A DNA stretch of 64,000 nt from an uncultured Candidatus Saccharibacteria bacterium (GCA_964501135.1 CAZCRI010000001.1:64393-128392); one strand, 5' to 3'. Positions 30,047 through 57,469 are shown, counted from the stretch's first letter. The notes: generated by a model from the sequence alone, not told the origin. A program made the numbers and translations.

Positions 30047-30667
30047 TTGCGGCAGAAAAGGAAAGAGATGACAAAGGAACAGACATTTATTGCGATTAAG
30101 GCTGAGGGGATTCAGCGTCATTTAATCGGTGAGATTATCACTAGATTTGAAAGGCGTGGTCTCAAGCTCGCAGCAATGAAGATGATGGTAGCCACCGCTG
30201 ACATAGTAGGTCAGCATTATCCAGATAGTGATGATTGGTACATCCCAACAGGCACTAAAGCGATCGAAGGTGCAGCTAGTCGCGGGATAACCATGAAGGA
30301 AACTCCAAAGGAGGTAGCGACTGTAATCCGCAACAACCTCGTCGATCACTTTTTAAATCGCCCAATCATTTGTATGATCTGGGAAGGGGCACACGCAGTA
30401 CAGATCGGACGCAAGACTGTTGGCGCCACAAATCCACTAGATGCTGCTCCTGGCACTATCCGTGGTGACCTTACGGTAGATTCTTATGAGCTGGCCGACA
30501 AGGCAGGACGTGTAGTACGCACCATCGTACACGCATCGGGTAGCGTTGAGGAAGCCAAGACCGAGATTGCCCTTTGGTTTAAGCCTGAGGAAATCATCGA
30601 ATACGACATGATCACTGCAGAGGTAATGTACGGTAACGACTGGGGTCGCGTAAAAAACGTCAAATAG
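30047..30667 (+). CDS. ndk: Nucleoside-diphosphate kinase with a ~55-aa internal insertion
   Basis: N-terminus EQTFIAIKAEGIQRHLIGEIITRFERRG matches NDK. Catalytic His is retained in TIVHASGS. The protein is 206 aa, against ~140-150 aa for canonical NDK. Confidence 0.75.
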   Translation: MRQKRKEMTKEQTFIAIKAEGIQRHLIGEIITRFERRGLKLAAMKMMVATADIVGQHYPDSDDWYIPTGTKAIEGAASRGITMKETPKEVATVIRNNLVDHFLNRPIICMIWEGAHAVQIGRKTVGATNPLDAAPGTIRGDLTVDSYELADKAGRVVRTIVHASGSVEEAKTEIALWFKPEEIIEYDMITAEVMYGNDWGRVKNVK

Positions 30668-33186: not shown

Positions 33187-33210
33187 AAAACCCCGCTCCG
33201 GCGGGGTTTT
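33187..33210 (+). terminator. Rho-independent terminator
   Basis: AAAACCCCGCTCCGGCGGGGTTTT hairpin followed by a T-run. Confidence 0.8.
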
Positions 33211-33219
33211 ATAAAAAAA

Positions 33220-33248
33220 GAAAACCCGCAAAGTGCACGGGTTTTCCG
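33220..33248 (-). terminator. Rho-independent terminator for the convergent minus-strand gene
   Basis: GAAAACCCGcaaagtgcaCGGGTTTTCC hairpin. Confidence 0.6.
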
Positions 33249-33270
33249 GTGCCATTTGCGGGGCAATGCC

Positions 33271-33648
33271 TTAGCGGCGAGTGTTCTGGAGCGGGAGCTT
33301 GTATCCCTTGTACTCCTCGATGGAGATGTATCCGGGGTGTTCGGCGCCAGGTCCAGTTGTTGCCACCAGACTCCCTGCCGGCAGCTGTAGGTCTCTCTGG
33401 GGCATAACAAGCTCTGCAGCCCCCTTGTTGGGGTAGAGGTTGTGTCCCAGTGAAACTGCCATCTGGAAGCGATTCCCTGTTGCGGTGACAAGAGTCATTA
33501 CTCTCTCGCCACCCTCAAAGGTGGTTCGTACGATTCTCGAAACTCCCCAGTAGCGGATGTTTCCCTTCTGGTTGAGTACGATGGCGTAACTCTTCCTCGG
33601 TGCGTTGGCAGGGACCTTCATTTTCTTGCCGTTGCGCCGTTTCGTCAT
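33271..33648 (-). CDS. Hypothetical protein (high-GC orphan)
   Basis: 125-aa ORF with a basic N-terminus and no recognisable motifs. G+C is visibly elevated against the flanks. Confidence 0.4.
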   Translation of the reverse strand: MTKRRNGKKMKVPANAPRKSYAIVLNQKGNIRYWGVSRIVRTTFEGGERVMTLVTATGNRFQMAVSLGHNLYPNKGAAELVMPQRDLQLPAGSLVATTGPGAEHPGYISIEEYKGYKLPLQNTRR

Positions 33649-33753
33649 GATGTCCCTCCTTCGGGACGAGGTTGGAATGAGCTGAGATATTGTATAACAA
33701 AAATAGACTTTTGTAAAGTCTATTTAAGTAAGTTCTTATTGATTTAGGGTTAC

Positions 33754-35079: not shown

Positions 35080-35584
35080 GTCTTTCTCCCAGTAGTTCGC
35101 GGGCCTTCTCGATGAAGAGGAGGTCTCTTTCGTGGATAAAAATACTTCTTGGACCTGTAGGATGCTCTTTTTCGATTGTATTTACGGCATCAGAAAGCGG
35201 CATCCACTCAAGGGAGAAATCCTCGGCGATTTCCTTTTCGGTAAATTCTGGTTCGCATACTTTGTTTGTTAACTCTGCAAGATAGCAGTAACTAAGCTGA
35301 AGGAATTCAAATTCATCGCGATATTCAATGATTAAGCCAATTTCGTCAGTAACCTTGATTTCGCAGCCTGTTTCTTCCAGCACTTCTCGTTCGAGGGCCT
35401 CCATAATTGACTCGCCAGGATCGATGCCCCCGCCGGGGAGTTTGTGCATGCTGTATTTACCAACAAGAAGAAGAGCGATCTCGCCTTTGTCGTTTAAGAC
35501 TACCGCCCTTGCTGCTCTTCGTATTTTGTAAGATTGTCTTTTCTCTTCGTGATTTCCGGGATAAATTTCTTTGATTAGTTCCAT
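35072..35584 (-). CDS. NUDIX hydrolase
   Basis: NUDIX box GGGIDPGESIMEALEREVLEETG. The ATG at 35584 is preceded by TATAAT only ~8 nt upstream, suggesting a leaderless transcript. Confidence 0.8.
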   Translation of the reverse strand: MELIKEIYPGNHEEKRQSYKIRRAARAVVLNDKGEIALLLVGKYSMHKLPGGGIDPGESIMEALEREVLEETGCEIKVTDEIGLIIEYRDEFEFLQLSYCYLAELTNKVCEPEFTEKEIAEDFSLEWMPLSDAVNTIEKEHPTGPRSIFIHERDLLFIEKARELLGERRG

Positions 35585-35632
35585 GTGATGATTATAACAT
35601 ATGAAATATTGAATTATTTCAGATAAAGAAAG

Positions 35633-35650
35633 CGCCCCGATTCCGGGGCA
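35633..35650 (-). terminator. GC hairpin GCCCCGgaatcGGGGC downstream of the GreA-like gene
   Basis: 6-bp GC stem. Confidence 0.4.
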
Positions 35651-35686
35651 CATTCTTCGTGCTTCGAAATTGGGGCGTGGTGGCTG

Positions 35687-36196
35687 CTATTGCAGCCAGT
35701 CTACCGTGTAGGTCGTGTTGACGATACGGACAGTGTCGCCAGCTCGCTTGCCCATGAGAGCTTCTGCGAGCGGAGTCTCCTGCGCGAGAACCGTGATGGT
35801 AACCGGATCTGTCCCCGGGATCGGGACGTAGTCGATCGTCTTCCCGGTCTTGCCAGGAACAATGAAGGCCAGCACGTCTTTCTCTCGGCCAGTACTTGCA
35901 CTGAGCATAGCCAACGTATAGAACTGGACGGTATCGTGCTTGTTCTTGTGCCACCCTTCAGGCATGAGCGACATCTCGCCGAGCCCAGCCTGGAACTTGG
36001 CAACGGTGTCGCGTGCCGCCTGAGCCATAGCTTGCTGCTGGCTCCGGTTTGTGTCGCTTGCGGACTCCATCTTGCTGGGGTAGCCGGCGGCCTCCTTTTC
36101 GAAATAGCGGACCTGATCCTCTGCTTCTGCGACGAGCTCCTTGATCGCAACGAGTGCGAGATCAAAGATTGCTGCCTTGTCGAATTCCGGAGTCAT
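35687..36196 (-). CDS. GreA/GreB-family transcription elongation factor-like protein
   Basis: The C-terminal sequence PGTDPVTITVLAQETPLAEALMGKRAGDTVRI resembles the Gre FKBP-like C-domain. AGGAGG RBS before the ATG at 36196. The ORF is high-GC. Confidence 0.55.
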   Translation of the reverse strand: MTPEFDKAAIFDLALVAIKELVAEAEDQVRYFEKEAAGYPSKMESASDTNRSQQQAMAQAARDTVAKFQAGLGEMSLMPEGWHKNKHDTVQFYTLAMLSASTGREKDVLAFIVPGKTGKTIDYVPIPGTDPVTITVLAQETPLAEALMGKRAGDTVRIVNTTYTVDWLQ

Positions 36197-36370
36197 CTCC
36201 GAAACCTCCTGTCGGCTAGGTGATGGAAACAATGAACGATAAGCATTTTCACATAGATTTGAGTTTTTGTCAATGTTTATTTTTCTTCAGTTTTATTCCT
36301 TATACACTTTCTTTATATTCCCGTAGAATGCTTTCATGCTGAAGTAATAAGACTGAAGCTGCTCCTTGAA

Positions 36371-36378
36371 GGGGGGGG
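36371..36378. repeat. G8 homopolymer tract at the 5' end of the radical SAM gene
   Basis: GGGGGGGG immediately upstream of the candidate GTG start at 36387, inside the alternative TTG-initiated frame. Confidence 0.5.
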
Positions 36379-36386
36379 AAGTTAAG

Positions 36387-37349
36387 GTGAACACTGCCAA
36401 TGATTCACTCCGAGTTCGTGTTACACCGTATTGCAACCTGAATTGTGGTTTTTGCCACGAGGAAGGCGGCGATGCATCCTGCCAGGTCAGTCTCGACCAG
36501 ATTGTCGCGGCAACCGAGTTCGCTTGCAAGCACGGCTTCTGCAAGTTCCACCTGACAGGTGGAGAACCCACACTGCATCCTGGCATCATCGATATCGTTC
36601 GTATCATTACCGGTGCCGGGTACCCTTGTGGTATCACCACGAACGGGCAGTTCCAGCCGAAGCTCCTCTCGGAGCTGAGGGAGGCTGGAGTTACTAGCCT
36701 CAACTTCTCTGTTCATACAGTCGACGCTTCTGCCTGGGCTCAGGTCCAGCAGAGTACTGACATCAAGAAGGCGGAAATCCAGATAGCTCGTGCAATCACG
36801 AATATCCGGGAGTCTGTCGCACTTGGAATCAGGACGAAGGTCAATATCGTGGTCGGCGACGACCCCGAAATGGCCATCGGCGTCATTGAAGAACTGCGAG
36901 AGTCTGGCGTAGAATACAGACTTCTCAACGTTCTCGGCTCGAATAACTCGCTCATCAGCATCACCGACGTTCTCGGCCATTACGATGCCGAGATGGTCGA
37001 AGAGACGCGAGTTATGGGTTCGAGCCAGTACAGGGCAACCTATACCAGCACGGTCGGTAACCTTGTGGTGAAAGAAATCCACCAGCACAGGGAACTGACT
37101 GTCTGCAAGGGTTGTAAGGAGAACTGCCAGGAGGGCTTCTACGGTATCCGGATTATCCCGATGGATGACTTGCTTCACGCACGTCTTTGCGTTCATCGTA
37201 CTTCCGAGACTACCCTGATGCCCTTGGAGCAGTTCGAGACCAGCCCGCAGCTCGATGCCATCAAGGCAAGTGGCGGTCTCAACAACGAGCACAAGGAGGT
37301 GTACCATGGTAGCACCTACTTCTCCAGAGCATCCATTTGTGGTGCTTGA
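36387..37349 (+). CDS. Radical SAM enzyme of the MoaA/viperin superfamily, with a C-terminal Cys cluster
   Basis: CNLNCGFC (CxxxCxxC) motif. FHLTGGEPTLHP and ITTNGQ...SLNFSVHTVD are MoaA-like. The C-terminal sequence CKGCKENC...ARLC suggests an auxiliary Fe-S cluster. The start could be the TTG at 36366 or the GTG at 36387. Confidence 0.8.
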   Translation: MNTANDSLRVRVTPYCNLNCGFCHEEGGDASCQVSLDQIVAATEFACKHGFCKFHLTGGEPTLHPGIIDIVRIITGAGYPCGITTNGQFQPKLLSELREAGVTSLNFSVHTVDASAWAQVQQSTDIKKAEIQIARAITNIRESVALGIRTKVNIVVGDDPEMAIGVIEELRESGVEYRLLNVLGSNNSLISITDVLGHYDAEMVEETRVMGSSQYRATYTSTVGNLVVKEIHQHRELTVCKGCKENCQEGFYGIRIIPMDDLLHARLCVHRTSETTLMPLEQFETSPQLDAIKASGGLNNEHKEVYHGSTYFSRASICGA

Positions 37350-37866
37350 GTCGAGGGACTACTGCGGCAAGACAACGGTCAGCACAGAGCTGACTGCACT
37401 CCTCAGGGCTACCTTGGTCAAGACTCCAATGGAGCCCGTCGCACAGTTCAGGGAAACTTACGACTGTTGCGAGAACTACGACGCTCGGTTCCTGTACTAC
37501 TTGAGCACTCTCTGCTTGGCTTCCAAGGCCATCGCGGAGGCCCTCAAGGTTGGACCGGTCGTCTGCGACCGGTACATCCACTCGGCCGTGGTCTACCACC
37601 ACGTTCTCGGAGTGGACACCTCGATGGTCGATATCGAGAAACTGGGGTTGGTTGTCCCTACCCTCACGGTTTGCCTCACCGCTAACAACGAAGTTCTTGC
37701 AAAAAGGAAGCGGGAGCGGGGCGAGGTCAGGCGAGACAACATCGAGGGTACGGTTGGCTTGCTTGACCGCGTCGACCAGATGATGCTGTCTGAGATACCA
37801 ACCCATATCGACACCAGCTATACAACGCCCCTCGAGGCAGCTCGGCTCATCGCCGCCATGCTCTAG
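37306..37866 (+). CDS. Thymidylate-kinase-family (d)NMP kinase
   Basis: GGAGGTG RBS followed by an ATG. P-loop FVVLESRDYCGKTTV. The sequence VCDRYIHSAVVYHH is a DRY-type motif of the Tmk family. Confidence 0.6.
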   Translation: MVAPTSPEHPFVVLESRDYCGKTTVSTELTALLRATLVKTPMEPVAQFRETYDCCENYDARFLYYLSTLCLASKAIAEALKVGPVVCDRYIHSAVVYHHVLGVDTSMVDIEKLGLVVPTLTVCLTANNEVLAKRKRERGEVRRDNIEGTVGLLDRVDQMMLSEIPTHIDTSYTTPLEAARLIAAML

Positions 37867-37873
37867 GGCACAC

Positions 37874-37909
37874 AGGGCTTCGCCCGGAGAAGGACTCCGG
37901 TCGGAGCCC
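37874..37909 (+). terminator. GC-rich hairpin at the 3' edge of the high-GC island
   Basis: CCGGAGaaggaCTCCGG sits within the sequence GGGCTTCGCCCGGAG...CGGAGCCC. Confidence 0.4.
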
Positions 37910-37952
37910 TTCTTCATTTTACAAAGAAGTTTGTTTGTGGTAACTTTTCATT

Positions 37953-38465
37953 ATGAATATTGAAGTAGAAAAGAAGTTCGAAATATCAGATTACAACACC
38001 GTGAAAGGGGAGATAGAGGCTCTCGGTGCCAATAAGGTGTCTACTACTAACGATGTCGATGTTTATTTTGTTGTTCCTCAGATAGTGCCGAACACCAGAT
38101 ATCTCAGAGTTAGAACAAAAAATAGTAAAGCGACCATGGCATACCATGAGGTAATAAATGACGTCGAGACCAAAGAGTGGGAGTCTGATGTCACGGATGG
38201 GGATATTGTCAAAACTATTATTGGCAAACTTGGGTTCGAAGAAGATGTTACTGTGAACAAAACTAGAGAGAAATATATTCTTGGTGGTTCAGAGATTCTT
38301 GTTGATCATATAGAGGGACTTGGATATTTTCTAGAGATTGAATCTCCAGACGAAGAACAACTAGACAGTATCGCAAATAAAATCACTTTGGGTTCTCAGG
38401 TATCTGGACAGGGGTACCCCGATATGGTCAGAACCAAGAAGAATCATGAGACAAGCACTAAATAG
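37953..38465 (+). CDS. CYTH-domain protein (triphosphate tunnel metalloenzyme; class IV adenylate cyclase/triphosphatase family)
   Basis: The N-terminal sequence EVEKKFEI matches the ExExK signature. Confidence 0.6.
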   Translation: MNIEVEKKFEISDYNTVKGEIEALGANKVSTTNDVDVYFVVPQIVPNTRYLRVRTKNSKATMAYHEVINDVETKEWESDVTDGDIVKTIIGKLGFEEDVTVNKTREKYILGGSEILVDHIEGLGYFLEIESPDEEQLDSIANKITLGSQVSGQGYPDMVRTKKNHETSTK

Positions 38466-40164
38466 CAACTCTTTAAGATGTAATGACAAAACTCTTTACC
38501 GGAGTTTTTTTGCAAACTATTCTTTTGTAGTCTCATCCCCAGGAGGCGCAATACTAGCTGGAACCTTCACGGATCATGTGGGCGGCCCAGGGCTCCATCA
38601 AAAGGTTCCGCTAAGGAACTATCTCGGTTTAACCCTTATCGACAAAGAGGAGATAGTCTTTGAGAACTTTGGAACCTATGATAGTTTCTCGGGCTCCTTT
38701 GTCCTTTTTGATGTTAAGCAGGAACATATTGATAAACTAAAGACTTTACAGACAATGATTTCTGATACCCTCGGAAAGAAGATAGGCCTAAAGGTAGGGA
38801 TATTAAATGAGTTACCTAGAAGGACGGGCCTGAACAACCCAGGTACAAACGCCGCTAATTTATCGGTAGCCTATTTGCTGCTAACAGGCCAGATAGAGCT
38901 TTCTGATCTTAAAGACTTTCAGAATATCTCTGCTACGTTAGAAACGGATAAGAGGGATTTGTTAGTATCGGTTGCTAAGCGCTTCCATTCCATTTGGTTA
39001 GGAAGAAAAAGTGCGGGATTTGGGGTTTTGGCAAACATGGTTTCTTTTCCGGACATACTTGTTTACAATCCAAGAGCTAATTACCCAGTACTGCCCTTGA
39101 GAAATATATTTAAGCCAGAGGTCGCGGGGGAGTTGCCTTTTGATATTGTGATAATTGGTACTTCCGATAGATACGATATTGATTTTTCCTTGAGAAGATA
39201 TGACGAGGTCGGCGATTTATTTTCCATTTCTGACAGCGACGTAAAACAATTTGAAGAAGCATTTAAAATTGATGAGCCTAGAGCAAAAAACTTCTCTGTC
39301 GAGTTACGAAAAAGTTACTTTCAGGCGGTAAGCGAAACCGGCCTTGCGGCAGCAATTGTTGCGGGTAAATTTATTGAGAACCCAAATATCGAGAATCAAA
39401 AGCTCTGTTTGCAGGTTTTTAATAGCTCTTACGATATGATCAATTTATTTGGTCAGAACTTTTCCAGGAAAGAGAAAGTCCATTCTTTTATCAGGAAATA
39501 TTTCCATGAAGTTCAGCCGGACATACCTTTTGCACTTACAACTGGTATTACAAATAATCTAATATTAGTTACCCCCAAGGATTCAACAAGGGAATACCTC
39601 GATAAACTTATTGAATACGTGAACAGTAAAATTAGTTTTGAAATTTCGTTGCCTTTTATTTCTTGGCTTGACGAAAACGATGAGGAAGGGGTGGTGGTTG
39701 AAAAGTGGGACAAGATTCGTCTCCAACCCACATATTTACCAAGTGGTTGTTTGTACCTTTATAGCTTAGCGGTTATGGAGACGAACGTTTCCTTGGTTGC
39801 AATAGACAACAGAGAGACACTTGAGACTGAGTACGACATCTTGTTGGATGAAGACGATAAACGTATATATGTAAATGGCAAACGAGTTACATCGAGGGAA
39901 TTGCCAACCGTTGCGGCCACAATTAACCTATTTACGTGTTTGTTTTCAGCTTCTGACCTTACCGTTTCATCTTTTGATTTGCCTGACCAATCATACTTTA
40001 TTGATCGAAACGAACTTCAGAGCAAGATTGTAAGTCCACTCAAAATATATGTGGAAAAAACGCTGGGGAAACACCTAAACCTAAAAATTAGCGGTAATAT
40101 TGCTGACTACAAAGTTACTTTGTTTTCTTCTGATCTAAAAATTGGTCTTATAAAAAGAATTTAA
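38446..40164 (+). CDS. GHMP-kinase-like N-terminal domain protein with a long C-terminal extension
   Basis: SSPGGAILAGTFTDHVGG resembles GHMP motif I (APGKVILFGEHAVV). LPRRTGLNNPGTNAANLSVA resembles the ATP-binding motif PxGSGLGSSAA. 572 aa. Confidence 0.5.
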   Translation: MRQALNSNSLRCNDKTLYRSFFANYSFVVSSPGGAILAGTFTDHVGGPGLHQKVPLRNYLGLTLIDKEEIVFENFGTYDSFSGSFVLFDVKQEHIDKLKTLQTMISDTLGKKIGLKVGILNELPRRTGLNNPGTNAANLSVAYLLLTGQIELSDLKDFQNISATLETDKRDLLVSVAKRFHSIWLGRKSAGFGVLANMVSFPDILVYNPRANYPVLPLRNIFKPEVAGELPFDIVIIGTSDRYDIDFSLRRYDEVGDLFSISDSDVKQFEEAFKIDEPRAKNFSVELRKSYFQAVSETGLAAAIVAGKFIENPNIENQKLCLQVFNSSYDMINLFGQNFSRKEKVHSFIRKYFHEVQPDIPFALTTGITNNLILVTPKDSTREYLDKLIEYVNSKISFEISLPFISWLDENDEEGVVVEKWDKIRLQPTYLPSGCLYLYSLAVMETNVSLVAIDNRETLETEYDILLDEDDKRIYVNGKRVTSRELPTVAATINLFTCLFSASDLTVSSFDLPDQSYFIDRNELQSKIVSPLKIYVEKTLGKHLNLKISGNIADYKVTLFSSDLKIGLIKRI

Positions 40165-40178
40165 TTTCCTGAATGGCA

Positions 40179-40754
40179 CTAAATCTTTGGGGGTTTCTCG
40201 GAGAAGTTAATCTGTTGCCAGCTGCAAACTTCTTCTTCGGTAACATCGTAGTATTTTGTGTAGACATTCTCGACACTACCGTGAAGTCCCTCTTTCCAGT
40301 CGAAACCTAAGTCAGCAGCCGCTTTGCGTACAGCTTCTTCACTTGGTCCTTCAATCTCGGCAAGTGGTGGAATCCAGGGCCAGGTGTCTATGGTTATTTC
40401 GCACTCATGATATTGCCATTTTTCACGGAGGGTTTTTTGCTGCGATTTTGTTTTGAGCCCAATCGCGTGAAGGAGCTCTAGAGTCTTATCGTAATCATTA
40501 ACCTCGACCATGATTTCCTTTGTCCCGTGGAGAGATCGGTCTAGTAGTTGCTTGTAACTCAGGGTGATGGCCTTGCCTTCATCTCGAACGCGAACCCAGC
40601 CACCGTCTTTGCCAAGCGATTTGTCTGAAAAGTCTAAAGCCTCTCTTTTCATTAAGATTTCTGGGTGGACCTGAGTGGCCCCTAGCTTGGCCAGAGTTTT
40701 CTGCACCGCAATTTTGTCGATATCACAAAATTTAATTTCAATTTCTGTTTCCAT
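40179..40754 (-). CDS. CYTH-domain protein (second copy, convergent)
   Basis: METEIEIKF N-terminal ExExK signature. Confidence 0.55.
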   Translation of the reverse strand: METEIEIKFCDIDKIAVQKTLAKLGATQVHPEILMKREALDFSDKSLGKDGGWVRVRDEGKAITLSYKQLLDRSLHGTKEIMVEVNDYDKTLELLHAIGLKTKSQQKTLREKWQYHECEITIDTWPWIPPLAEIEGPSEEAVRKAAADLGFDWKEGLHGSVENVYTKYYDVTEEEVCSWQQINFSEKPPKI

Positions 40755-40854
40755 GTGCAAATTATATCATGAGAGTACAATACCCGTGCAGAAAGGCTAT
40801 ATTTAGGCTATAATACCGTCCAGTGACTGCAAGACGCAGTGAGAAAAGGAAGAG

Positions 40855-55260: not shown

Positions 55261-56172
55261 TCAGCCTCCTTTCAGAATCGGGCAGCGTGAGGTGTCGTTG
55301 AGGCAGATACTGATTCCCGAGGCGTTGTATACCGCGTAGCGGCAGGACCGGGGTATCTGCTGTGTAGTGTGGTAGAGCGTGTGGTCGTTCATAAAATCCT
55401 CATCGAGTAGCGCCCCGATCAAAGACTCGGGACTGTGCAGAGCAAGCTCTGCACAGGGGTATACCACCCCTCTGTAATCGATGTAGGCAGAACGGGTCGA
55501 GATCTCGCAGGAGCAATCGAGGGGACTGCTACCGAGCTCGAGGGTCGGATCCAACTGAGAGCGAATGATTCTCAGCTTTTCAGCTAGGTCCATTCCACCA
55601 AGTCCGAGGTAGCTATTCTTACTGGCCCTGCCTTCGCAGTTGATCTCATTGAAGTGGAAACTACCAACGCCCAACCCGATCAGCTCCAGGACTATTTCGT
55701 CCAGGCTTCTAAGGTTGAGTGAGTTGATAGTCAGATAGACGGTAACAGGTTTTCCGGTTTCGACTATCTTTGACAGGGTTGCAACAGTCTTGCGGAACGA
55801 TCCCGTTCCTCGAATCAGATCGTGAATACGTTCGGTTCCTTCGACACTGACTCCAATCTGGTCGATGAGACCTTCGTTGATGACTGAAGTCGTTGCCTCT
55901 TGGTAGGTCCCGTTGGTGATGATGCTGGTCGAGATACCGAGCGTTTTCGCTTGCCGTAGCAGGAGGTGAAGGTCCTTCCGGGTGAAAGGTTCCCCGCCCG
56001 TGATAAACACCCTCTGACATCCCAGCGAAGCAATCTTCCTCAGGATCTGAACAGACGCTTCGGTGCTTGTCTCACCGGTTTCTAGATCACCGATGATGCA
56101 GTGGGTGCATTGCAGGTTGCAGTTGCGGGTGATCTCCCAGTGCCAGTCTCGGAGTGTCGGGGGGTTATCCAT
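55261..56172 (-). CDS. Radical SAM / SPASM-domain enzyme (second of a pair)
   Basis: CNLQCTHC (CxxxCxxC), GGEP, and a C-terminal Cys-rich region (C..C..C...C) consistent with SPASM/twitch auxiliary clusters. Confidence 0.8.
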   Translation of the reverse strand: MDNPPTLRDWHWEITRNCNLQCTHCIIGDLETGETSTEASVQILRKIASLGCQRVFITGGEPFTRKDLHLLLRQAKTLGISTSIITNGTYQEATTSVINEGLIDQIGVSVEGTERIHDLIRGTGSFRKTVATLSKIVETGKPVTVYLTINSLNLRSLDEIVLELIGLGVGSFHFNEINCEGRASKNSYLGLGGMDLAEKLRIIRSQLDPTLELGSSPLDCSCEISTRSAYIDYRGVVYPCAELALHSPESLIGALLDEDFMNDHTLYHTTQQIPRSCRYAVYNASGISICLNDTSRCPILKGG

Positions 56173-57469
56173 GATCCGGCCCTGCGAAGTCGATCGCACC
56201 AACTTGTGCGAGCAGGGAGACGAGTCTCCTCATCTCGTTGGTTTCGACCCGTTTGGCGTTCAGCTCGATGAGCTCAGCCTCAGAGGTGATGCCGCCGAGA
56301 ATCTGTTTGAGGATGTGGATGCACAGGGCATCAATCTCGATCGTTTGATACCGGGTGACCAGGTAGGCTTCCTTATGGGCCGTGTTAATCCTGGCGTACG
56401 AGTTGGGTCGGAAAGACCGCATCTCGGACAGAAAGTCCGGCGATGTGGTCTTAGTGGGCAGCTCGGCGTTATTCGTGATAGTCAGCGCTTCGTTGCCCCT
56501 TACAGCGTAGTCTACGCTGTAGGTTTGCGCCGAGTTCGCGTCGACCTTGCACCCGCAAAGGCATTCGGTCAGGACGTCGCAACCGACGCACGGTCTCTCA
56601 ATCCATCCAAGATCTCTGAACTCCGAGAGTTCCGGATTGCTCCAGATGGTTTCGAAGTCCTCGGTCAGGATGTTGCCGTATACCCGTTCTGATTGGTTGC
56701 AGGTACGGACGTTGCCGTTGGGGTTGACGGCGGCGAAGGTGACTCCAGCGCCGCAGTCCGCGGTCATCTGCTCGGGGATCAGGCGATCGTCGAGACAGAA
56801 GGGAATTGCAGTACCCCAACCGACGGGGATGTTGAAGTCGTCGCGACCCTGGATCATCTGACCCAGCGCAATGCGGAACTGCTCGGTCGAGGGCTTCATC
56901 TGCGTAGAGCTTTGGCTTCCTAAGCCACCGTCTTCGTATCTGTCTACAAAGACGCTTTCCATGCCCATCTCCTTGGCCAGACGGATCAGATCGTACATCT
57001 GGTCGAAGTTCTGGGCCGTGAGGACCGGGATGCAGCGAACGTCGAATCCTCGCTCGACGTATTTCATGATCGAGCTCGTGGCCTGCTTGAAGCTCCCGGC
57101 CTTGTTCGTAAGGTAGTCGTGAGTATTCTCCATGCCATGGAGCGGTACGCCGATGCACGCGAGCTTGGTCGAGAGGCCATCGAGGTACACTTGGCCGTTC
57201 GTAACGATGGTCACGGATGACTGTGTAGACAGCAGCTCGATGTACTCGTTGAGCTTTACTGTCCCTAGGAGACTGGGTTCACCTCCGATGAGGTAGACGT
57301 GGGGGATCTTCGATGCGTGAACCCTGGCGACGATCTGGTCTATGATGGCCGGGTCGATCCTGCTGTTGCGGTTGGGGTTGTAGCAGAACTTGCACTGCTG
57401 GTTACACGCGTAGGTGGTTTCGATGTGAACGAGATGCGGAACACTCGGTGCGATAATCTGGCAGGGCAT
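56165..57469 (-). CDS. Radical SAM / SPASM-domain enzyme (first of a pair) with a ~100-aa C-terminal extension
   Basis: CNQQCKFC, GGEP, and the SPASM cysteines CGAG...C...PCVGCDVLTECLCGCK. The extra C-terminal alpha-helical-looking region could be an RRE-like domain. Confidence 0.8.
   Translation of the reverse strand: MPCQIIAPSVPHLVHIETTYACNQQCKFCYNPNRNSRIDPAIIDQIVARVHASKIPHVYLIGGEPSLLGTVKLNEYIELLSTQSSVTIVTNGQVYLDGLSTKLACIGVPLHGMENTHDYLTNKAGSFKQATSSIMKYVERGFDVRCIPVLTAQNFDQMYDLIRLAKEMGMESVFVDRYEDGGLGSQSSTQMKPSTEQFRIALGQMIQGRDDFNIPVGWGTAIPFCLDDRLIPEQMTADCGAGVTFAAVNPNGNVRTCNQSERVYGNILTEDFETIWSNPELSEFRDLGWIERPCVGCDVLTECLCGCKVDANSAQTYSVDYAVRGNEALTITNNAELPTKTTSPDFLSEMRSFRPNSYARINTAHKEAYLVTRYQTIEIDALCIHILKQILGGITSEAELIELNAKRVETNEMRRLVSLLAQVGAIDFAGPDHG

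Follow-up and report, generated by a model that had tools for sequence, protein, structure and literature searches.

What a compact, unusually GC-rich group of genes for a radical S-adenosylmethionine (rSAM) enzyme, a nucleotide kinase and a Gre-like protein is doing in a genome of the Patescibacteria is the question raised by a locus in a 64,000-nt stretch of DNA from an uncultured Candidatus Saccharibacteria bacterium (GCA_964501135.1 CAZCRI010000001.1:64393-128392). This whole stretch is referred to below as the window, and positions are counted from its first nucleotide. An initial annotation, made from the sequence alone, had described positions 35655-37910 as a horizontally acquired island in which a MoaA- or viperin-like rSAM enzyme and a thymidylate kinase (Tmk)-family nucleoside monophosphate (NMP) kinase might together synthesize a chain terminator or another modified nucleotide. 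The flagged positions cover the GC-rich half of a rare six-gene cassette in a Patescibacteria genome, and the cassette runs past the flagged end to approximately position 40760. It probably makes a modified nucleotide and appears to be linked to RNA polymerase through the Gre-like factor. The reading favored here, a six-gene module for the synthesis and handling of a modified nucleotide that is coupled to RNA polymerase via that factor, is assigned a probability of about 0.5. The six genes are as follows.

35687-36196, minus strand: Gre-fold factor of 169 aa (extendable to the TTG at 36232), in which an antiparallel coiled coil at the N-terminus is joined to a C-terminal beta domain of the GreA_GreB type
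36387-37349, plus strand: rSAM enzyme of 320 aa, from an uncurated MoaA-fold family
37306-37866, plus strand: Tmk-family NMP kinase of 186 aa, overlapping the rSAM gene by 44 nt, with AAGGAGG before its start
37953-38465, plus strand: CYTH-A, triphosphate-tunnel enzyme of 170 aa (PF01928, E 2e-18, 67 bits)
38446-40164, plus strand: protein of 572 aa, no family assigned, overlapping CYTH-A by 20 nt
40179-40760, minus strand: CYTH-B, second CYTH enzyme, of 193 aa (PF01928, E 1.5e-10, 41.6 bits)

The original open reading frame (ORF) calls for the first three genes were longer (181 aa at 35687-36232 on the minus strand, a 327-aa rSAM protein at 36366-37349, and a Tmk-like protein at 37255-37866). 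The rSAM gene most likely begins at the GTG at 36387 rather than at the TTG at 36366, as judged from homologues and from a DNA alignment of three sequences; the GTG is common to all three close relatives, and the N-termini of homologues read MN(T/A)ANDSLR. The kinase most likely starts at the ATG at 37306, and the same 44-nt overlap with the rSAM gene is found in the closely related locus L014 (loci are cited here by L numbers and individual proteins by P numbers).

A radical SAM family with a MoaA-type fold

The rSAM core motifs reported by the initial annotation are all present (CNLNCGFCHEEG, TGGEPTL, TTNGQ and NFSVHT), and the generic Radical_SAM domain (E = 3e-21) is the only Pfam match on the protein. 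The cluster loop reads C16-x3-C20-x-F-C23-H-x-E-G, and an auxiliary motif reads C240-x2-C243-x3-C247-x-EGFYGxR255...C268, with three to seven residues before its third cysteine across the family. In a family alignment (A1) of 50 members, the four C-terminal cysteines C240, C243, C247 and C268 are invariant, as are TGGEP, T84 and G87 of TTNG, S108, and N153. When this alignment is set against 17 MoaA hits, CxxxCx[FYW]CHxEG occurs in 50/50 family members and 0/17 MoaA hits and the auxiliary motif CxxCx3-8CxExFYGxR in 48/50 and 0/17, whereas the C-terminal GG tail and the CxxCx13C motif are each found in 17/17 MoaA hits and 0/50 family members. The tail of the window protein itself (...SICGA) is unconserved, with a predicted local distance difference test (pLDDT) value below 50.

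Curated models lead to the same separation. The MoaA equivalogs score about one third of their cut-offs (TIGR02668, the top match, moaA_archaeal, 108 against 325.25 bits; TIGR02666, 91.6 against 284.05; NF001199, 92.4 against 231), relatives from L009, L024, L094, L096 and L049 likewise fall far under the MoaA cut-offs, the MoaA C-terminal domain PF06463 (Mob_synth_C) has no match in the window protein, and in NCBIfam no curated model names any member of the family. The residues of Staphylococcus aureus MoaA that contact GTP, which we take from the MoaA-GTP structure papers to be R17, K69, R71, N124, K163, R192, R266 and R268, provide a finer comparison. In a profile alignment to 1TV7, equivalents of MoaA R17, N124, S126, N165 and R192 are conserved, the R71 position is a nearly invariant His, the K163 position is variable, and R266 and R268 cannot be aligned confidently. 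A match to the viperin model NF038283 reaches 50.2 bits against a cut-off of 180, and the PADLOC models of prokaryotic viperins (pVips) cover only residues 17-164, that is, the generic rSAM core. To our knowledge viperins are single-cluster enzymes without an auxiliary Fe-S site, so that the conserved auxiliary-cluster cysteines also speak against the membership in the viperin or pVip family that the initial annotation had entertained, and which is not upheld.

The AlphaFold model of the enzyme (pLDDT 90.3) finds its best fold match, over the full length, in MoaA (template modeling score, TM, 0.62), followed in Foldseek by BlsE and AbmM (E 3e-9, TM 0.52-0.58) and by viperins (E ~1e-8). In a profile search of the PDB the top entry is likewise S. 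aureus MoaA (E 3e-29), with an alignment that extends through the CxxC motif; AbmM (8WM2) comes second but over the N-terminal half only, where CNLSCSFCHNEG is shared, then BlsE, and lower down viperins, among peptide maturases such as PqqE and SkfB. The closest solved relatives, MoaA, AbmM, BlsE and viperin, act on nucleotides or nucleosides, whereas SkfB, SuiB and PqqE, which rank among them, mature peptides. The likeness to AbmM is also detected by phmmer (E 5e-17), confined to residues 9-112 and with CNLxCxFCHxEG in common. AbmM carries out a sulfur-for-oxygen swap in formation of the albomycin thiofuranose (PMC12691670). By sequence and predicted fold, then, the protein is placed in a distinct and rare family of two-cluster type, neither MoaA nor viperin, with a MoaA fold, an AbmM-like loop and an auxiliary motif of its own.

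An exhaustive profile search among 1.84 billion representatives yielded 271 clusters (50% identity) at E <= 1e-30, and a word-indexed search ~53 relatives without Mob_synth_C. Species representatives in GTDB include at least 178 relatives; of the best 80, most belong to Actinomycetes and the rest to Thermoactinomycetaceae, Patescibacteria and a few further groups. Some members carry further domains, among them P0207 (606 aa) and P0291 (570 aa), one with an N-terminal SorC-type sugar-binding region and the other with C-terminal TPR repeats. A variant module (L098:7026-8051, L104:1179-2180 and L097:8064-8735), ordered Gre-like, Tmk, an additional gene, and CYTH on the opposite strand, encodes a MoaA-like protein in which the N-terminal CxxxCxxC is missing and GALEP replaces GGEP; the C-terminus of this protein in L098 and L104 reads LRLTVxPFCNFNCR...GWCMEEPG, as if the radical SAM cluster loop had been circularly permuted.

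Partner genes of the radical SAM enzyme

Partners were surveyed by clustering all ORFs from 94 loci, with counts corrected for ORF-calling artefacts, and a non-redundant set of 20 Patescibacteria-type loci was considered separately. A CYTH gene is adjacent to the rSAM gene, within 600 bp of it, or fused to it in 84 of the 94 loci, in Actinomycetota, Bacillota and Patescibacteria. This near-universal partner was missed by the initial annotation, both window CYTH genes lying outside its coordinates. Fusion proteins of rSAM and CYTH are encoded in L027, L049 and L054, that of L049 (Thermoactinomyces daqus, 551 aa) being Pfam-confirmed as Radical_SAM plus CYTH in a single chain. The 20 Patescibacteria-type loci contain the CYTH gene in 16 cases, a Gre-like gene in 18, a Tmk-type kinase in 14, an Adk-type kinase in 4 more and a SAM methyltransferase in 5.

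Both CYTH types of the window have rSAM-linked counterparts elsewhere. CYTH-A is 57-64% identical to the rSAM-linked CYTH proteins of L001, L002 and L015 and 32-35% identical to those of L004-L013, and its type adjoins the rSAM gene in Patescibacteria loci. CYTH-B is 43% identical to the rSAM-adjacent CYTH of Streptomyces L024, and its type, which accounts for 57/75 linked CYTH proteins (subtype B), adjoins the rSAM gene in Actinomycetes and some Patescibacteria. The ExExK signature can be read directly in both (IEVEKK in CYTH-A, EIEIK in CYTH-B). Against the TIGR00318 cut-off of 57.95 bits, CYTH-A scores 65.5 and CYTH-B 37.2, and the closest solved CYTH relatives include both cyclases and triphosphatases. 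The 572-aa protein between them, translationally coupled to CYTH-A, has orthologues only in the closest relatives, L001/L014 and L015, and no Pfam, NCBIfam, PADLOC or PDB relative above threshold. It and its two orthologues share a sub-threshold PF10509 galactokinase signature at residues 18-50 (E 0.006-0.025), and it is possibly a divergent kinase of the GHMP/galactokinase type.

The coupled Tmk-family kinase proposed by the initial annotation is borne out by PF02223 (35 bits against a cut-off of 27), the 44-nt overlap, and the motifs LESRDYCGKTT (P-loop), CDRY (containing the DRY motif) and KRKRERGEVRR (a basic LID), which are conserved among module kinases. That annotation had also raised the case that this gene might be the housekeeping tmk of the organism. 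The kinase scores 41.4 bits against the TIGR00041 cut-off of 83.25, and a solved Tmk is matched at E 0.006 only; in PADLOC, it matches PDC-M51B (E 5e-23, 79.8 bits) and VakA (E 3e-11), and the kinase of L009 matches VakA at 9e-21. PDC-M51B is the only component of its system present, PDC-M51A having no match among the seven neighboring proteins, and no mention of PDC-M51 was found in the searchable literature. Tmk-type kinases are linked to the rSAM gene in 18 loci, including ones from Kitasatospora (L072) and Ignavibacteriota (L016), and L014 has two kinase paralogues together with a uridine-kinase-like gene and a NUDIX gene. Because of the sub-cut-off score, the module linkage across phyla, the duplication in L014, the foreign GC3 (0.73) and the Adk-type replacement elsewhere, a dedicated NMP kinase rather than a normal housekeeping tmk is supported, and the Tmk/Adk exchange reads, on these family assignments, as non-orthologous displacement of one NMP-kinase function. 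At 5 kb upstream of the module there is an ndk gene (30047-30667, plus strand; NDK match in two stretches), probably a housekeeping gene, that would provide the step from nucleoside diphosphate to triphosphate.

The third partner has the Gre fold, as the initial annotation had supposed, although it proves to be a conserved and sometimes fused component of the module instead of a neighbor that merely shares the island. Its AlphaFold model (pLDDT 91.9) consists of helices 7-38 and 45-76 plus a beta domain, and its best Foldseek matches in the PDB are Gfh1-RNAP 3AOI (E 3e-5), Gfh1, GreA 1GRJ, a GreA/Gfh1 chimera and Rnk 3BMB. An identical 169-aa protein (P0085) is present in public data, and the family comprises at least 277 members of ~162 aa each, with all source-named members from Patescibacteria. 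Most of the members listed carry a precomputed PF01272 match, and none of those listed has PF03449 (GreA_GreB_N). The family is marked by a conserved segment, GAMxSRYDTFKEEAQYLAGG, in which S45 and D48 are invariant and M43, S45, D48 and T49 make up the conserved tip motif; the window protein reads SKMESASDTNRSQQQ at this segment. In E. coli GreA, the acidic tip residues D41/E44 drive transcript cleavage. Taken from the Gre side, both of the two family members chosen for their long contigs adjoin an rSAM gene. A metagenome scan from that side, limited to a single peptide pattern, gave seven loci.

Three proteins, furthermore, fuse an rSAM enzyme to a Gre-like part, and these fusions are regarded as suggestive but short of proof. 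P0215 joins to the rSAM enzyme a Gre-like part that hhalign (98.5%, E 1.7e-15) aligns over the coiled coil, the tip motif and the greater portion of the C-terminal domain, P0318 has the ESRYDT tip motif with a sub-threshold C-terminal GreA_GreB match (19.7 bits), and P0231 matches PF01272 above the cut-off (27.2 bits). The locus of P0231 (L185) is arranged as Adk/AAA_17 kinase, rSAM::Gre, and CYTH on the minus strand, on a contig recorded in four samples. Further genes of this locus (L185:199-4649) encode a response regulator, a Crp-type regulator that binds cyclic nucleoside monophosphates (cNMP), several small P-loop kinases and a NUDIX hydrolase, which may hint at a cyclic-nucleotide output.

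Composition and setting of the locus

The GC content is 0.575 in the Gre-like gene, 0.541 in the rSAM gene and 0.572 in the kinase gene, against 0.461 in the whole window and 0.39-0.48 in neighboring genes, and in 400-nt windows it rises to as much as 0.55-0.575 between 35600 and 37800 from ~0.40-0.48 on both sides. At third codon positions (GC3) the three genes reach 0.71, 0.645 and 0.73, respectively, against 0.39-0.48 in glmM, NUDIX, CYTH-A, the 572-aa gene, CYTH-B, ABC-F and PpiC. Three further elements lie within or beside this segment.

35632-35651, minus strand: intrinsic terminator of the Gre-like gene, with an 8-bp stem (7 GC pairs), a 4-nt loop and a T-run tail (TTTCTTTAT)
36197-36386, no strand assigned: AT-rich divergent control region between the Gre-like and rSAM genes (GC 0.344 over 36233-36386)
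37874-37910, plus strand: GC-rich hairpin 3' of the kinase stop codon, terminator-like or an attenuator

The terminator has a folding free energy of -22.6 kcal/mol (z -4.46) and the hairpin one of -27.9 kcal/mol (z -4.09), and in neither case did any of 200 shuffles fold equally stably, so that the high-GC segment with bounding hairpins described by the initial annotation stands both gene by gene (0.54-0.58) and by shuffling (z -4.5 and -4.1). The NUDIX ORF upstream probably starts at 35584 and hence is clear of the terminator. The control region contains promoter-like sites for the Gre-like gene (36273-36245, minus strand) and the rSAM gene (36301-36329, plus strand), with the sequences TTGACA-17-GAAAAT with TG and TATACA-17-TAGAAT. 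Rfam has no RNA element in or around the module.

A run of eight G residues at the 5' end of the rSAM gene, also noted initially, is indeed present (36371-36378), but since the rSAM protein most likely starts at the GTG at 36387, the run belongs to the 5' leader, where it occupies the Shine-Dalgarno position, and not to the coding sequence. The leader (36325-36400) can be aligned at the DNA level with L014:7939-8014 and L015:4342-4417, and relatives have G6 or AGGAGGGG at the run. A phase-variable coding tract was rejected on account of this location and these variants, and by position and comparison the run is best regarded as a ribosome-binding-site variant. In the same leader a small predicted hairpin, weak and drawn from three sequences, pairs CUCCUU with the G-run Shine-Dalgarno sequence (GGGGGG).

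The window is syntenic with L014, from a Patescibacteria metagenome-assembled genome, over PpiC, a 125-aa ORF, glmM, NUDIX, the module and ABC-F; flanking proteins are 78-93% identical and module proteins 63-72%. L014 and L015 show the high GC3 in exactly the same three genes (Gre-like, rSAM and kinase). In all three genomes CYTH-A and the 572-aa gene are low in GC, and in L014 two low-GC genes sit between the Gre-like and rSAM genes. The acquisition by horizontal transfer that had been proposed is matched by a foreign-like composition, but a simple recent island was not adopted, an identical gene-specific GC3 pattern being kept in three diverged genomes. Nor does simple transfer followed by amelioration explain the high GC3 of three genes that have low-GC partners. 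A phage origin was likewise rejected, the phage collection having given partial matches to the rSAM core only; IMG/VR holds about five full-length family members, at least one of which (L107) is a provirus call on an isolate genome contig.

Around the 20 Patescibacteria-type loci, most neighboring genes encode histidine kinases, response regulators, ABC transporters or housekeeping functions. Individual loci lie near AbiEi, SocA/Panacea, HicA (toxin-antitoxin), restriction genes, or a Schlafen-like helicase with MazG. On a Bacillus cereus plasmid (L094; NZ_CP063160, 149179-155743) the order is ATP-grasp, rSAM, CYTH, hypothetical, ATP-grasp and MFS, and this apparent biosynthetic cluster lies a few kb downstream of a cyclodipeptide synthase/P450 pair. 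The absence of moaC from the window, also reported initially, holds, with no MoaC-like sequence in the 64 kb (tblastn E > 0.18), and moaC is not among the gene families common to at least seven of the 94 loci.

Two other features of the window were recorded. A second GC bump (0.55, 33200-33650) overlaps the 125-aa ORF (33271-33648, minus strand), which is kept in L001 and has no Pfam match; at the edge of this ORF there are sub-threshold Rfam matches only, on terminator-looking sequence. Two more radical SAM genes stand in tandem at 55261-56202 and 56165-57469 (both minus strand, 38-nt overlap); their best solved relatives are SkfB and PqqE (E 8e-16 and 9e-11), and they may form a RiPP-type (ribosomally synthesized and post-translationally modified peptide) maturase pair, perhaps unrelated to the module.

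Proposed function and comparison with known systems

The protein families, their predicted folds, and the linkage and fusion of the genes are what the analysis shows, and from them we infer a nucleotide substrate, an order of steps, RNA polymerase binding and a biological role. The dedicated Tmk-type kinase, together with the cellular Ndk, would channel one NMP into a di- or triphosphate pool, and the rSAM enzyme would then alter that nucleotide by a radical reaction at the sugar or base-sugar. CYTH would act on the triphosphate of the product or of a by-product, either by hydrolysis, as a finishing or detoxifying step, or by cyclization. The Gre-fold protein, as a factor of the secondary-channel type, would tie this chemistry to RNA polymerase, and the product would act on transcription, being delivered to the polymerase active site or excised from stalled transcripts. 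A role in conflict or growth control is more likely than a housekeeping role. In a more far-reaching version, to which only a low probability is given, the rSAM complex would dock on RNA polymerase via the Gre-type factor and make or deliver a modified nucleoside triphosphate (NTP) at the entry channel, or modify the extruded 3' end of the nascent RNA; if true, it would constitute a previously unknown transcription off-switch or proof-reading activity in tiny-genome Patescibacteria.

Several observations weigh against the proposed module. The window Gre-like protein falls under the PF01272 cut-off (19.2 against 26.9 bits) and has no PF03449 match, and its tip has diverged (SASDTNRSQ against the consensus SRYDTFKEE). 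The loci read outside Patescibacteria, including all those from Actinomycetes and Bacillus, are without a Gre-like gene, with the exception of L016 from Ignavibacteriota; coupling to RNA polymerase is therefore not part of the core chemistry. Each rSAM::Gre fusion is a singleton cluster from automated assembly, and P0215 and P0318 could reflect a lost stop codon or a sequencing error. A terminator-like hairpin stands between the kinase gene and CYTH-A, and the GC content of CYTH-A is native-like, so that co-expression of the two in the window genome can only be presumed. Finally, defence models are not enriched among the 143 ORFs neighboring the 20 Patescibacteria-type loci, where housekeeping genes and two-component systems, not defence islands, prevail.

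Four alternatives to the module were weighed. The one that survives best, although it is considered unlikely, is a cassette for a nucleoside antimetabolite (an antibiotic), like thmABC or albomycin AbmM/AbmG, in which the rSAM enzyme would remodel the sugar of a nucleotide, the kinase would serve biosynthesis, CYTH (NUDIX or MazG elsewhere) would dephosphorylate the product for release and protect the producer, and the Gre-like factor would add self-resistance by rescuing the producer's RNA polymerase. The AbmM-like N-terminal half of the enzyme, the frequency of the rSAM-CYTH pair in Actinomycetes, the recurrence of NUDIX or MazG-like genes close by, and the B. cereus plasmid, where the pair stands between two ATP-grasp ligases plus an MFS exporter and next to a cyclodipeptide synthase, all agree with such a function. 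In thmABC, moreover, an rSAM enzyme, a nucleoside kinase and an NTPase suffice for 4'-thiothymidine, and the NTPase alone gives self-resistance (PMC12691670). According to the authors of that study, however, ThmA has no detectable similarity to AbmM (PMC12691670), which by inference puts it outside the present family too, and the AbmM similarity of the window enzyme ends after ~110 residues. The window and most Patescibacteria loci have no exporter or tailoring gene, and a resistance factor fused to the producing enzyme would be unusual.

Less probable again is an antiviral chain-terminator system that resembles a viperin plus kinase without being a viperin, in which a 3'-modified NTP made on infection would poison phage polymerases, Gre-stimulated cleavage would rescue the host polymerase, and CYTH would clear the pool. 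The kinase points in this direction through its matches to VakA and to the candidate defence component PDC-M51B, as do the rare and patchy distribution (271 clusters), the faster evolution of module genes than of their flanks, and the proximity of some loci to the toxin-antitoxin, restriction, AbiEi, SocA/Panacea and Schlafen-MazG genes named above. Set against these are the failed viperin membership and the presence of an auxiliary cluster, the missing PDC-M51A, the housekeeping and two-component surroundings without enrichment of defence models, and the near absence of full-length relatives from phage and viral collections, hence no sign of an arms race.

A signaling system, in which the rSAM enzyme and a CYTH of the class IV cyclase type would make a cyclic or otherwise modified messenger, read by RNA polymerase with the Gre-like factor in the manner of ppGpp with DksA and placed under two-component control, is doubtful and ranks below both. 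CYTH-A does pass the cut-off of the class IV adenylate cyclase model, but TIGR00318 also captures triphosphatase CYTH proteins, and the closest solved relatives are of both sorts. In one clade the module is flanked by a HisKA_7TM kinase and a response regulator, most of the surrounding genes are of housekeeping type, and a Crp-type cNMP-binding regulator with a response regulator adjoins the kinase/rSAM::Gre/CYTH locus L185, yet the Crp neighbor occurs in that locus only and a receptor domain conserved from locus to locus is lacking. A bona fide MoaA (GTP 3',8-cyclase) for the molybdenum cofactor, beside a housekeeping tmk, is extremely improbable and already contradicted by the sequence tests: the top curated hits, the top fold match and five conserved MoaA positions are outweighed by equivalog scores at one third of the cut-offs, the lack of Mob_synth_C, GG tail and CxxCx13C, the His in place of R71, a window free of moaC, and a kinase with a sub-cut-off Tmk score, a second copy in L014 and Adk-type replacements elsewhere.

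The proposed module remains the preferred reading, and its interest lies in what it would add. Among nucleotide-remodeling rSAM enzymes, viperin has led to antiviral chain terminators, MoaA to a cofactor pathway and AbmM to thionucleoside antibiotics. The present family would form a fourth branch beside these, with a newly described set of partners (CYTH in nearly all loci, and an NMP kinase and a Gre-type factor in Patescibacteria), and the initial annotation's wording of a novel MoaA-like nucleotide-modifying system fits the evidence. No paper that joins an rSAM enzyme to CYTH, or to both a kinase and a Gre factor, was found in the searchable literature, which leaves out most subscription journals; within it the cassette is undescribed, and it is akin to the rSAM nucleotide-analogue modules that have a dedicated kinase. 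Should the product prove to be a new analogue of a nucleotide, it would be a candidate antimicrobial or antiviral scaffold, and if the Gre link is physical, a small-molecule-making enzyme would be tethered to the secondary channel of RNA polymerase, an arrangement of which we know no earlier case. There is a real possibility that coupling to RNA polymerase makes the cassette categorically new. Culturable homologues in Streptomyces, in Thermoactinomyces and on the B. cereus plasmid make the core chemistry approachable, though Patescibacteria are hard to grow.

Among known systems, MoaA with MoaC resembles the module at the level of the rSAM enzyme in several respects, including the best full-length fold match (TM 0.62), two Fe-S sites (the N-terminal CxxxCxxC and a C-terminal motif containing CxxC) and several conserved nucleotide-contacting positions, and CYTH could handle a triphosphate as MoaC does in forming a cyclic phosphate. 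The two differ in the equivalog scores, the C-terminal domain and motifs and the R71-to-His change detailed above, in a partner that is CYTH and not MoaC, and in the lack of a molybdenum cofactor context. The pVips with VakA have in common with it the logic of an rSAM enzyme with a Tmk-like NMP kinase, a homologous rSAM core and a kinase that matches the VakA model, whereas the window enzyme lies below every viperin cut-off, aligns over the generic core only and has a conserved auxiliary-cluster motif, and the PADLOC 2.0 components are viperins and kinases only, CYTH and Gre-like partners not being among them.

The Gre-like protein shares with GreA/GreB, Gfh1 and Rnk a predicted coiled-coil hairpin and a GreA_GreB C-terminal domain; its tip motif is conserved within its own family, and its association with a nucleotide-making enzyme recalls the pairing of DksA with ppGpp. 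It departs from GreA in having no GreA_GreB_N Pfam match and a family tip of M-x-S-R-Y-D-T-x-K-E-E in place of D41/E44, and from Gre factors generally in its genetic tie to a radical SAM enzyme, with which it is in some cases fused; its binding to RNA polymerase is putative.

In the AbmM/AbmG cassette, lastly, AbmM shares the CNLxCxFCHxEG loop and the N-terminal half of the rSAM enzyme, and thmABC has the same layout of an rSAM enzyme, a P-loop nucleoside/nucleotide kinase and an NTP phosphohydrolase. The resemblance to AbmM stops after ~110 residues, the phosphohydrolase here is a CYTH protein, and the thionucleoside parallel rests on analogy. Although ThmA presumably stands outside this rSAM family, thmABC is the closest functional precedent for the cassette.

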